From positions 131,412 through 195,411 of the forward strand of contig JBHLRS010000002.1 of NCBI GenBank assembly GCA_048882325.1: a DNA stretch of 64,000 bases. Direction: 5' to 3'. The DNA comes from Candidatus Thorarchaeota archaeon. Lineage in GTDB: Archaea; Asgardarchaeota; Thorarchaeia; Thorarchaeales; Thorarchaeaceae. This document shows positions 48,956 through 52,723 of this stretch, one piece after another; position 1 is the first letter of the stretch; every line of letters starts with the position of its first letter. The notes under the pieces were generated by a model. The model was not told the origin of the DNA, did not search any database, and was given only the letters and a program-made list of their open reading frames with translations. A program made the translations under genes and the position numbers.

Positions 48956-50923
48956 CTATGCTACGACTTCTAGAACTCCATCGAGAACTAGTTTTGTGGC
49001 AACAAACTTCATTGCGGGAAGACTGACATTCAGCTTCTTCACTACATCCTGTAGAGGTAGTGTTCCATCACAGAGGTCAACAAACTTTACTACAACATTA
49101 CCATAAGCCTTCTGAGTGTCTTCATCTACGACACCCATTTTCTTCAGATGACTGGTAGGACCAATCTCTACCTTGAAGTCAATCCAACCGTACTGGTTCA
49201 TAATCTGCAGACAGCCAAGTACAGTTTCACGAGGTAGGTCTAGGCTGCGTACAAGGCCACCGATTGTGTCATTAGTCTCGATTGCAGTCTTCACATCTAC
49301 TATTGCTTGCCCAACCTCACGGTTCTCAAATGGTAGTGGTCTCCCAGCTTCTCTTGCACGAACGATATAATCGAAGCTGATTGGTCTCAATGGTATCCGT
49401 GTTAGGACACTGAATACTGATGTTTCGAAGGCAGCCTTATCGCCATTCCAAGTATCCCACACATCTTGATACATCTGCTCAATCTCAAACAAAAGTGAGG
49501 TGAGAATGCTTCTCTGCTCATCTTCCTCACTGTCGTTCGTAGCAATGAGTGCGAGGACGAAATGTTTTGACTTTTCTACCATCACAAGATTTCCTTCATG
49601 CTCAATTGTTTCTAGAGCATCAGTTGTGCTTGTACCGTCAGAAGATTCTGCATCGATTCCACCAAAGGAGTCAAGTGCTGAAATCAGAGATGCGATGGCA
49701 TTGGTGTCTATCTCATCATCAGCATACTTCAGATGGAAGGACACATCTGGCATTCCCTCTTTCTGGACTATAAGTAGAAGGTGGAGAATCTTAGACCGGT
49801 CTGATGAAACAGGAGTGACTATTTGTGCAGTGTCCGTTGCATCTGAAGTCGCGTCTGCAGCCTCAGCTATCGCGACAGCTTGTGAGGTTGTTGGAATCGG
49901 TGTCTCACTGATTGCCTCAATGCTTTCATCAGAGTATGGTACAGATTCAAAACCTGATGCGGGAGTTCCTGCTTGTGCTTCAGTGGCAGCAGGCCCAGCA
50001 ACACCGGGTTGGTCAATCTCCTCAGTACCCCTTCTGACGGTGATCATCTCACTGACTGGAAGGTCAGGTAATGTCACGCCAACAGTCTTAGCAGATACCT
50101 CAAGCATGAGTCGAATGAATTCTTCTCGTCGCGACTTGTCAGTGGCAACCATTGCGAATGTTGGGGCGCCAAGTAATCGCTTGATCTTCTCAGCCTTCAT
50201 CGACTCTGGTAGGTCTTGTTTGTTAGCTATGATGAATAATGGAACTGCAGGTGCTTCTTTGCGAATATTACGTAGGAGTGATTTTGTCTGCATAACGTTC
50301 CTGAAACTCGAGTCCGTAATTAGAAAGATTACATCTGTTCCTGAGAAGTAAAAACTCCAAAGATCTTGGAACACTGCCTGTCCGGCAAAGTCCCAGACAG
50401 TCACGAGAAATGTACCAAACTGTATAGTTTCAGATGAGTCGACTGCGACATTGATAGTTGGTACGTATCCTCCAGGCGCAGGTTCCTTTCCAAATAGTAG
50501 TCGGAGAAGGGTACTCTTACCGACACCACCACTCCCTACGAAGCTGACCTTGAACCTGGTAAAGATGAGTTCACCAAGGATATCATCCAGATTATCGCGG
50601 ATGTAGCCGATACTGTTCCCACGAAGAGCTGTGGAAACTCTAGCTGCACCTTCACGGACGCGGTGCTGGATGACTCTGTCTTCATCACGACCATCAGTCA
50701 CAAAGAGAAGAAGCATATCACCATCAACAGGTCCATGAAAGACTTTGTGTTTCTCTGCAACAAAGACAGGAGTGTCCGCAGCGAGACCCTCAGTAGTGTG
50801 AAGGTCTCGGTATCCAGCAAGGAATTCTTGAATATCATCATCAAGAAAATCAATCTTCCAGAACCTAGTTCTCACCACAACGTTACCATTTCCCCTTTCG
50901 ATCAATAACACGTTGTGTATCAC
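48956..50923 (-). CDS. multidomain Arf-like small GTPase (longin-GTPase-linker-longin-wHTH)
   Basis: GSGGVGKST, YVPTI, WDFAGQ, LWSFYF, ANKQDL; longin-like N- and C-terminal modules. Confidence 0.88.
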   Translation of the reverse strand: MIHNVLLIERGNGNVVVRTRFWKIDFLDDDIQEFLAGYRDLHTTEGLAADTPVFVAEKHKVFHGPVDGDMLLLFVTDGRDEDRVIQHRVREGAARVSTALRGNSIGYIRDNLDDILGELIFTRFKVSFVGSGGVGKSTLLRLLFGKEPAPGGYVPTINVAVDSSETIQFGTFLVTVWDFAGQAVFQDLWSFYFSGTDVIFLITDSSFRNVMQTKSLLRNIRKEAPAVPLFIIANKQDLPESMKAEKIKRLLGAPTFAMVATDKSRREEFIRLMLEVSAKTVGVTLPDLPVSEMITVRRGTEEIDQPGVAGPAATEAQAGTPASGFESVPYSDESIEAISETPIPTTSQAVAIAEAADATSDATDTAQIVTPVSSDRSKILHLLLIVQKEGMPDVSFHLKYADDEIDTNAIASLISALDSFGGIDAESSDGTSTTDALETIEHEGNLVMVEKSKHFVLALIATNDSEEDEQRSILTSLLFEIEQMYQDVWDTWNGDKAAFETSVFSVLTRIPLRPISFDYIVRAREAGRPLPFENREVGQAIVDVKTAIETNDTIGGLVRSLDLPRETVLGCLQIMNQYGWIDFKVEIGPTSHLKKMGVVDEDTQKAYGNVVVKFVDLCDGTLPLQDVVKKLNVSLPAMKFVATKLVLDGVLEVVA

Positions 50924-51028
50924 TAGAATTCACACTCTGTCCTGCGTCTTGGTAAATCATTGGTCGTTATCTACTTTTCTTGCGTTTTTCATGATTTATT
51001 CTCTCTATGAACCTTACGTGTGCGTGCA

Positions 51029-52723
51029 TTAACCCTCTTTGATTGTGATAATCTGACGTCTATGAAGCTCCGCAAAGACTGTAACAAGCACACTCGGTTG
51101 TAGCTTGAGCTCTGTAGCAATTTCCTCGATTGTGAGAGTACCATCTACTAGTCCGACAATCTCGTCAACCCGGGAATAGAGCGATAGTACATCATCATCT
51201 GGTTCTTTGAGGAGAATTGGTGCATCATCAGGACCTATCTTGAGTTCGAGTTCAATAGCGCCCATTCTATGGAGAAGATGGATTGCGCCAAGAATCATCT
51301 CAGGTCCCTTTCCCGGGACCAAGAGCGACATTGTCATTGTTCCGTCTAGGCGGTTCCACACAGCCTCAACAAAGTCCCGTAATGGTGCATTCTCAAATCG
51401 TTCCCAGAGGAGTGCTCTTGCTTGCTTAGGGGCCATCCTACTCGGAATGACTTCTGGTGGTAGGGTTGCGAGTAGCTTGAGCGTGAATGGAGGAGAACGG
51501 AAGAGATCTGTTGGGTCATCCACCAAATCAGGCACTTCATCCATGAATAAATCAGGGAGAAATGAAAACCTCTCACGAAGTGCTTCGACATCAACACCAG
51601 TCCCCGTGATGAGTGTATAGACATAATGACCGCGTTCTATAGTAATGTAGTTCAAATCTCCAGTACGAAACACAGAGGTTTCGGTTGGACTGGCTGGATC
51701 AAACTTGAAAGCTGAGATAGCAGCCACTATATTTGGAGCCAGCTCTAAAAGACGTGACCGCTCATCATAATAATAGCTGTATGCGGCCTCACCAGTTCTG
51801 CGATCCACCACAAAGAACGCTTGATGACCAACCTCTTCCTCCTCAGATTCTTCAATTGACGATACATAGTCAATAGACCTGTCAATCTCCCATCTCTTAT
51901 ACGCCAATTCTGGATGCATGTCTAAGAATCCAGCAATTGCCATGGAAGAAAGAATCAGATATGTCGGTTGCGTCGACACATCAGATAACTCTAACCCATA
52001 GAGATCCTCATACTCTCTTGCAAGTTCAAGCTGCTCATCTGAACCTGGTACCACAACTAGTTGAGATGAAGATTTGTCCCGGATTTGCATAACAACTTGT
52101 TCCACTCTGTCAGAAGTTGGAAGTGGAGGAGAGATGACTAGAACAAACAATGACGCAGATGAGAAATCTTCCGTCCAGTCAGCTTTGACCAAGTCATCGT
52201 GTGTGATTCTCATCACTTCTACACCAAATGGACCAATCATCAATGGAGCAGAATAAGACCGATTCTTCTGTGCTTTTTTCTGAAGAATTGAGTCCACTGC
52301 AGTTCCAGATTTGTCGTCATATATTGGGTCATCAGTTGCGATGAAACACACTCGAATACGTTCCCTAAGAAGATCATCAGCAATATGCGAGAACTCGTCT
52401 TTGAAGTCACGTACTGATGCTTGTTCAATGTTCTTACTTGACGCTTCTTGAACTCGTTTCATTCGCTCTATGTCAACTCCAGAAATTGGGGTTGTATCAG
52501 ACACACCAATAATGATGGTCATCTTGCTTACCTTGCAGATGCAGGTACCTCTCCCATCGATTTCAGTTGTCACAAATTCTCTTGCTGAGTCTTCCTGCAT
52601 TAGTTGATAATATGTATCGACAATATGTTTGAGAAACTCGTCTGTGACTTTCTCTTTACTAAAAGAGATGGATGCCAGTTCTTTGGACCCAAGCAGGTCA
52701 AAGAGTACAGCATTAACAATCAT
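51029..52723 (-). CDS. longin-like multidomain protein with C-terminal wHTH; apparent GTPase-dead paralogue of the neighbouring gene
   Basis: Parallel layout to 48956-50923; no P-loop; two DGTxT wHTH repeats. Confidence 0.7.
   Translation of the reverse strand: MIVNAVLFDLLGSKELASISFSKEKVTDEFLKHIVDTYYQLMQEDSAREFVTTEIDGRGTCICKVSKMTIIIGVSDTTPISGVDIERMKRVQEASSKNIEQASVRDFKDEFSHIADDLLRERIRVCFIATDDPIYDDKSGTAVDSILQKKAQKNRSYSAPLMIGPFGVEVMRITHDDLVKADWTEDFSSASLFVLVISPPLPTSDRVEQVVMQIRDKSSSQLVVVPGSDEQLELAREYEDLYGLELSDVSTQPTYLILSSMAIAGFLDMHPELAYKRWEIDRSIDYVSSIEESEEEEVGHQAFFVVDRRTGEAAYSYYYDERSRLLELAPNIVAAISAFKFDPASPTETSVFRTGDLNYITIERGHYVYTLITGTGVDVEALRERFSFLPDLFMDEVPDLVDDPTDLFRSPPFTLKLLATLPPEVIPSRMAPKQARALLWERFENAPLRDFVEAVWNRLDGTMTMSLLVPGKGPEMILGAIHLLHRMGAIELELKIGPDDAPILLKEPDDDVLSLYSRVDEIVGLVDGTLTIEEIATELKLQPSVLVTVFAELHRRQIITIKEG

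Follow-up and report, generated by a model that had tools for sequence, protein, structure and literature searches.

Which regulator acts on which small GTPase in Asgard archaea is an open problem, and operons rarely reveal the match (Tran et al., PMC10933270). Two adjacent genes in a 64,000-nucleotide stretch of contig JBHLRS010000002.1 (a Thorarchaeota genome, assembly GCA_048882325.1), referred to here as the window and used for all coordinates unless another contig is given, present a case in which the GTPase carries its candidate regulator module in the same chain, with a degenerate twin encoded next to it. The two proteins carry the working labels P0001 (655 amino acids (aa), active GTPase) and P0002 (564 aa, paralogue with a dead G domain).

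Domain layout and paralogy of P0001 and P0002

Both genes lie on the minus strand. P0002 is the upstream gene (51029..52723) and P0001 the downstream gene (48956..50923, GTG start), and a spacer of 105 bp (50924..51028) separates them. The open reading frames (ORFs) and their translations are backed by full-length orthologues of 61-90% identity for P0001 and by a family of 44 representatives for P0002, and the peptide strings quoted in a first-pass annotation of this DNA, which was made from the letters alone, were all found in the translations. Close relatives of both proteins carry the source names Candidatus Thorarchaeota or Promethearchaeota (Asgard archaeon); relatives of P0001 are annotated there as 'ADP-ribosylation factor-like protein' and those of P0002 as 'hypothetical protein'. 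No clear TATA box was seen by eye in either spacer of the locus, and a search for RNA sequencing runs that cover it listed none.

AlphaFold2 models of both proteins contain a longin domain, an alpha/beta domain, a second longin domain and then two winged-helix (wH) units. Both longin domains of each protein have the beta-beta-alpha-beta-beta-beta-alpha-alpha topology of longins, with no N-terminal helix. The layout longin - G - longin - wH - wH is confirmed for both proteins at the level of predicted structure. It agrees with what the first-pass annotation had proposed, namely a sigma-adaptin-like N-terminus, a complete Arf-like G domain, a linker, a second longin and two winged helices in the 655-aa protein, and the same layout with the G motifs lost in the 564-aa protein.

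P0001 begins with a longin domain that resembles sigma-adaptin and zeta- and delta-COP (residues 1-120, 50564..50923), which is followed by the Arf-like G domain (residues 121-295, 50039..50563). Residues 122-254 match Pfam Arf at E 3.2e-18 (66 bits, above the gathering score), and the best solved relatives of the domain are Arf1 proteins (PDB, E 3e-14); further Pfam matches are Roc, Ras and, more weakly, Gtr1_RagA (24 bits, far below Arf). The motifs G1 GSGGVGKST, G3 WDFAGQ and G4 NKQD are invariant in 28/28 orthologues, and 140 of the 175 columns of the domain are invariant in the orthologue alignment. P0001 carries the motifs of a Ras-superfamily small GTPase of the Arf/Rag-like kind. Its model, built on a shallow alignment, has a mean predicted local distance difference test score (pLDDT) of 65. 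The acidic, Thr/Ala-rich linker (residues 296-374, 49802..50038) is predicted to be disordered (pLDDT < 50 over residues 293-374) and has a mean column identity of 0.47. Within this otherwise variable stretch a G-F-E-x-V-P-Y patch is conserved (residues 324-330, 49934-49954, minus strand), with G324, V328 and P329 near-invariant; it may be a short binding motif. The second longin (residues 375-512, 49388..49801) opens the NPRL2/NPRL3-like module, and the two wH units close it (residues 513-655, 48959..49387; AlphaFold2 secondary structure, hhalign and alignment to NPRL3/NPRL2 chains). Elsewhere in the same genome, a 606-aa frame (G000:C13:35788-36663, minus strand) is 38% identical to the longin-G half of P0001 and is without its C-terminal module. 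Since that protein matches only the longin-G half, the longin-GTPase unit is joined to different tails within one organism.

P0002 comprises a first longin (residues 1-120, 52364..52723), a pseudo-GTPase domain (residues 121-285, 51869..52363), a second longin (residues 298-425, 51449..51832) and two wH units (residues 426-564, 51032..51448). Its AlphaFold2 model, built from the family alignment, has a mean pLDDT of 82, and of about 90 over residues 1-280. The GTPase fold is kept in this model while the nucleotide-binding motifs are lost: Walker A (G1), DxxG (G3) and NKxD (G4) occur in 0/34 relatives of 45-85% identity, which is the state of a pseudo-GTPase and not of a small GTPase. Pfam and NCBIfam yield no significant match for P0002 and Pfam no GTPase match; its winged-helix region has weak Pfam matches to HTH_47, Rrf2 and DUF742 in 6-12 of 34 members. 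The NKxD position is occupied by a conserved P-G-S-D (residues 226-229, 52036-52047, minus strand), in which Pro226 and Asp229 do not vary across 34 sequences, Asp229 standing where GTPases have the Asp that contacts guanine; this conservation hints at a structural or ligand role that has been retained. The reading frame is open in 70-odd genomes, with a lone in-frame stop in one genome, and P0002 is not a decaying gene.

Homology of the two proteins, on which the first-pass proposal had been staked, is borne out by comparison of family profile with family profile, which gives a single colinear alignment of 525 columns (probability 93%, E 3.5e-7). BLASTP of P0001 against P0002 aligns the C-terminus only (28% over 82 residues, E 2e-6). 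In hhalign comparisons by segment, E is 3.9e-10 for the wH regions, 1.5e-8 for the C-halves, 3.9e-5 for the N-halves (201 columns), 0.0018 for the G domains and 0.018 for the first longins; controls with mismatched domains range from 0.016 to 0.75, and matched domains are always best. Both genes are under strong purifying selection, with dN/dS (the ratio of nonsynonymous to synonymous rates) <= 0.07 wherever dS is unsaturated, and dN of P0002 is 1.5-2.4 times that of P0001. Conservation peaks in the G domain of P0001 (0.97) and in the second longin of P0002 (0.82), whose pseudo-G domain (0.60) and first longin (0.59) are its least conserved parts.

NPRL2 and NPRL3 consist of a longin followed by two or more winged helices (PMC3747258), an arrangement shared by the C-halves of P0001 and P0002. 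In a structural alignment with VIA, residues 378-654 of P0001 (longin plus two wH units) align with whole NPRL3/NPRL2 chains, the matched chain C probably being NPRL3 and 9v0j_A NPRL2, judging by residue numbering and a PDB profile search of the module. The top Foldseek matches of the P0002 model are Gtr2/RagA/RagC, a Lokiarchaeota Rag-like GTPase (8yl2), SEA/GATOR1 chains, Mon1-Ccz1 and CPLANE (E 1e-6 to 1e-4). Neither a Pfam NPR2/NPR3 match nor a significant profile match to NPRL2/NPRL3 was found by sequence. Pfam and NCBIfam return nothing significant for the flanking domains, the C-half regions have no Pfam match at E <= 1, and the module profile finds only weak matches among PDB sequences, led by the MON1A longin (E 0.05, rank 1), with NPRL2 at rank 4 (E 0.37). 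The likeness to GATOR1 Nprl2/Nprl3 that the first-pass annotation had drawn holds for the C-half, where the structural alignment is chain-wide, and does not extend to the N-half or to Pfam family membership. As far as predicted structures go, the resemblance to NPRL2/3 is real and limited to the C-terminal half.

A 2025 survey defines longins of the type found in GTPase-activating proteins (GAPs), some of them from Asgard archaea, by a GP motif and an arginine finger (PMC12290439). None of the four longin domains of the pair contains this GP motif. The loops before strand 2 read G-N in the first longin of P0001, G-S in the first longin of P0002 and G-E in the second longin of P0002, and G-M-P is present only in the second longin of P0001. 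In the first longin of P0001, the T-D-G-R-D-E-D loop has an invariant R79; no conserved loop arginine was seen in the second longins of either protein.

The longin+2wH module also exists as a stand-alone protein of 273-320 aa in many Asgard families, often in tandem pairs. Four proteins of this genome have the full module: P0001, P0002, P0289 and P0290. The latter two form a tandem pair on contig C10 (L015:5963-7654, plus strand) of about 289 and 273 aa, 38% identical and with one-base spacing, and P0289 has a sub-threshold Pfam match to HTH_NPRL3, the C-terminal helix-turn-helix of NPRL3 (E 3.9e-4). A GTPase gene was looked for beside P0289/P0290 and none was found; the nearby Roadblock/LC7 gene is on the opposite strand at a distance of 0.8 kb. 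About 36 candidate matches to small GTPases and 17 proteins with this longin type were counted in the genome.

Phyletic range, gene order and neighbouring genes

The P0002 family profile draws its 44 representatives from 1.84 billion proteins, together with one stand-alone relative of 273 aa. Library-wide it misses P0001 (E <= 0.001), and within single genomes it reaches P0001 at E 1e-11 to 1e-6. Among 400 scanned genomes of the phylum, P0002 is present as a single copy in 76/85 genomes of its own GTDB family, including all 16 genera, and no orthologue was found in the other 315 or so. The full-length P0001 orthologues of 61-90% identity belong to the same family. A further one, 46% identical, comes from G311, the sole genome of a sister family, where the gene upstream encodes an unrelated secreted protein, and outside this order matches are restricted to the longin-G part or the stand-alone module. 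Since P0002 is limited to one GTDB family and P0001 also occurs alone in the sister family, the pair is a lineage-specific duplication. On the simplest account, P0001 was duplicated in tandem at the root of the family, after which the copy lost its nucleotide site and diverged fast.

P0002 lies upstream of P0001 on the same strand in every genome that has both on one contig (at least 50 genomes, 16 genera; coordinate comparison), and the adjacency that the first-pass annotation had named as a check is conserved. Wherever the contig permits a view, P0002 was accompanied by P0001. The two genes adjoin directly except in four genomes of one genus (G372, G373, G375 and G377), in which a 526-aa ORF without a Pfam match lies between them on the opposite strand (G375, L018:5732-7312, minus strand); co-transcription is therefore not universal. 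P0001 is also kept without P0002 in G311 and G368, and thus does not need the partner. G368 is a one-contig genome (L019, G368:C1:1066000-1076000) in which the P0001 orthologue and a beta-CASP gene are kept while P0002 and two DNA methylase genes are missing, their place being occupied by an MFS transporter, a Memo-like gene and hisS.

These methylase genes lie upstream of P0002 on the same strand and encode a 5-methylcytosine (m5C) DNA methylase and an Eco57I-type N6-methyladenine (m6A) methylase. The m6A and m5C genes (52798-56265, minus strand) match parts 222-622 and 650-1013 of the PADLOC model PDLC03237, a fused MTase_II. Because these are consecutive parts of one fused model, the two genes look, by sequence, like a split fused enzyme. 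In 15/16 genera the m5C gene immediately precedes the P0002 orthologue, with the same orientation and a gap of 60-200 bp. The pair persists in six genomes that have no m5C methylase, and three of these are 96-99% complete; P0002 is thus tied more closely to P0001 than to the methylase. Downstream and convergent lies a beta-CASP/metallo-beta-lactamase nuclease (46806-48953, plus strand) with a 320-aa N-terminal extension of unknown family; it is the furthest-conserved neighbour of P0001 and is present in G311 as well as G368. The region, comprising the two DNA methylases, the beta-CASP nuclease, nadA and a HAD hydrolase, is syntenic even where P0002 is 46% identical.

Possible roles of the pair

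With a confidence slightly better than even, the pair can be read as an ancestral P0001 homodimer that turned, after duplication, into a pseudo-symmetric P0001/P0002 heterodimer. P0001 would be a self-contained switch, in which an Arf-like G domain with all catalytic motifs has an adaptin-type longin on its N-side and is linked by a disordered tether to an NPRL2/NPRL3-like module on its C-side. P0002 would be the full-length duplicate that lost nucleotide binding, kept the fold and came under the highest constraint in its NPRL2/3-like module. The ancestral homodimer may have been held together by its longin and winged-helix domains, as happens in the Rag, NPRL2-NPRL3 and Mon1-Ccz1 dimers, and duplication would have left one live and one dead nucleotide site, with the longin platforms holding and regulating the single active G domain. 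The winged helices of both proteins are neutral to acidic (net charge -8 to +1), which counts against DNA binding, and in this heterodimer they would serve protein contacts instead.

Several observations weigh against such a heterodimer. P0001 is conserved without P0002 in two genomes, and an unrelated opposite-strand ORF separates the genes in four. Homology of the N-halves is moderately supported by sequence (E 3.9e-5), the model of P0001 has low confidence in its G domain, and besides the missing GP motif no arginine finger was mapped in either protein. A maximum-likelihood tree of the longin+2wH module could not place P0002 beside P0001 because the P0002 branch is very long (4.2 changes/site), and the remaining groups form an open polytomy. 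Five rows of this tree, first taken as stand-alone proteins, are fragments of the P0002 family. Complex prediction of the C-halves (P0001 375-655 with P0002 298-564) gave a score of 0.07 (mark 0.32), which speaks neither for nor against binding. A stronger version is rather doubtful, in which the heterodimer of GTPase and pseudo-GTPase is obligate and its built-in NPRL2/3-like modules act as a platform of the GAP or guanine nucleotide exchange factor (GEF) kind for the single live G domain. If true, it would amount to a minimal self-contained Rag-plus-GATOR1-type switch in one complex, and such regulators would have been physically coupled to the GTPase in archaea before eukaryotic complexes separated the parts.

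The paralogues may instead have ceased to cooperate, each forming homodimers of its own or acting alone, with their adjacency a trace of tandem duplication in a conserved region. Since synteny of the whole neighbourhood persists where P0002 is 46% identical, adjacency by itself carries little weight, and the genomes that have P0001 alone or an inserted ORF speak for the same view. However, P0002 has not been seen apart from P0001, the stand-alone module likewise occurs as a tandem pair, and a partner role better fits a protein whose enzymatic site is lost and in which strong purifying selection is concentrated in a dimer-type longin module; independent action is a real though minor possibility. 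P0002 could also be a trans regulator, a GAP- or GEF-like platform that acts on the G domain of P0001 or on another small GTPase as NPRL2-NPRL3 acts on RagA, and not a symmetric partner. Eukaryotic longin dimers act as GAP or GEF platforms (PMC3747258, PMC8213707), the C-half is organised like NPRL2/3, and the genome encodes the small-GTPase candidates and longin proteins counted above. It is nonetheless unlikely to be such a regulator, as the GP dipeptide of GAP longins (PMC12290439) is absent from all four longins, the second longins show no conserved loop arginine, and P0001 already bears the same module in cis.

A role of P0002, with or without P0001, as winged-helix DNA-binding or regulatory subunit of the upstream methyltransferases, in a modification or defence system, would account for the m5C gene that precedes it in nearly all genera, for the joint absence of P0002 and both methylases from G368 and G311, and for the winged helices in which both proteins end. 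It is highly improbable given the six genomes that keep the pair without the m5C methylase, the charge of the wH units and the closest structural relatives of the module, which are the protein-binding tails of NPRL2/3. PADLOC assigns no defence family to P0001 or P0002, and only the two methylases match (MTase models).

The heterodimer with one live site is the reading retained here. Since the regulator module is fused to the GTPase and the twin is adjacent, one two-gene construct could address three questions: whether longin modules of the NPRL2/3 type bind an archaeal Arf/Rag-like G domain and regulate it, whether duplication converts a homodimer into a live/dead heterodimer, and whether winged helices are used for protein contacts. 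As a candidate archaeal counterpart of a GTPase coupled with its regulator, the pair can be tested at the bench. The first-pass annotation had seen in it a possible antecedent of eukaryotic nutrient or trafficking switches. That suggestion fails, as P0002 is confined to one Thorarchaeota family, too narrow a range for a direct ancestor of eukaryotic systems. What the pair can teach is how switches of this kind may be assembled, rather than from what the eukaryotic ones directly descend.

Comparison with known systems

NPRL2-NPRL3 (yeast Npr2-Npr3), the longin subunits of GATOR1/SEACIT and a GAP for RagA/Gtr1, are likewise a paralogous pair and share the longin + wH organisation with the C-halves of P0001 and P0002, whereas in the proteins described here the module follows a longin-GTPase unit within one chain. 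In archaea, the text to Fig. 5c of Liu et al. (bioRxiv 10.1101/2020.10.19.343400) describes an NPRL2-like family, a longin with the NPRL2 C-terminal domain, in most Thor metagenome-assembled genomes, an organisation common to P0289, P0290 and the C-halves of P0001 and P0002. That text reports fusions to two-component signalling domains and makes no mention of a GTPase fusion or a dead-GTPase paralogue; the preprint also reports Rag-family GTPases fused to longins in Asgard archaea. A full-text literature search for an archaeal pseudoGTPase with a longin returned nothing, and both the dead-GTPase paralogue and the in-cis fusion of GTPase and module appear undescribed.

Other Asgard fusions of Rag/Arf-like GTPases likewise have the G domain between an N-terminal longin and a C-terminal longin or roadblock domain, as in Loki GTPases between a longin and a roadblock domain, and are Arf-like by sequence and Rag-like by architecture (Tran et al., 2024, PMC10933270). 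One operon pair of MK-D1 is predicted to dimerise through its C-terminal domains like Gtr1-Gtr2 (PMC10933270). The two winged helices are missing from these fusions, and the MK-D1 pair consists of two GTPases, with no counterpart of the pseudo-GTPase member found here. In the Rag heterodimers themselves (RagA/B-RagC/D; Gtr1-Gtr2) both subunits bind nucleotide and dimerise through C-terminal roadblock domains, and they have neither an N-terminal longin nor winged helices. P0002, without the motifs, departs from this scheme, and the Rag-like feature of the present pair is the G domain followed by a C-terminal longin. The tri-longin Rab GEFs (Mon1-Ccz1, Fuzzy-Inturned/CPLANE and BLOC-3) are also paralogous multi-longin proteins, and they are heterodimers. 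Foldseek and VIA match them over residues 1-397 of P0002 with a root mean square deviation of about 27 A, so that domain order is matched and not packing, and the middle domain, a longin in those proteins, is a GTPase fold in the pair described here.

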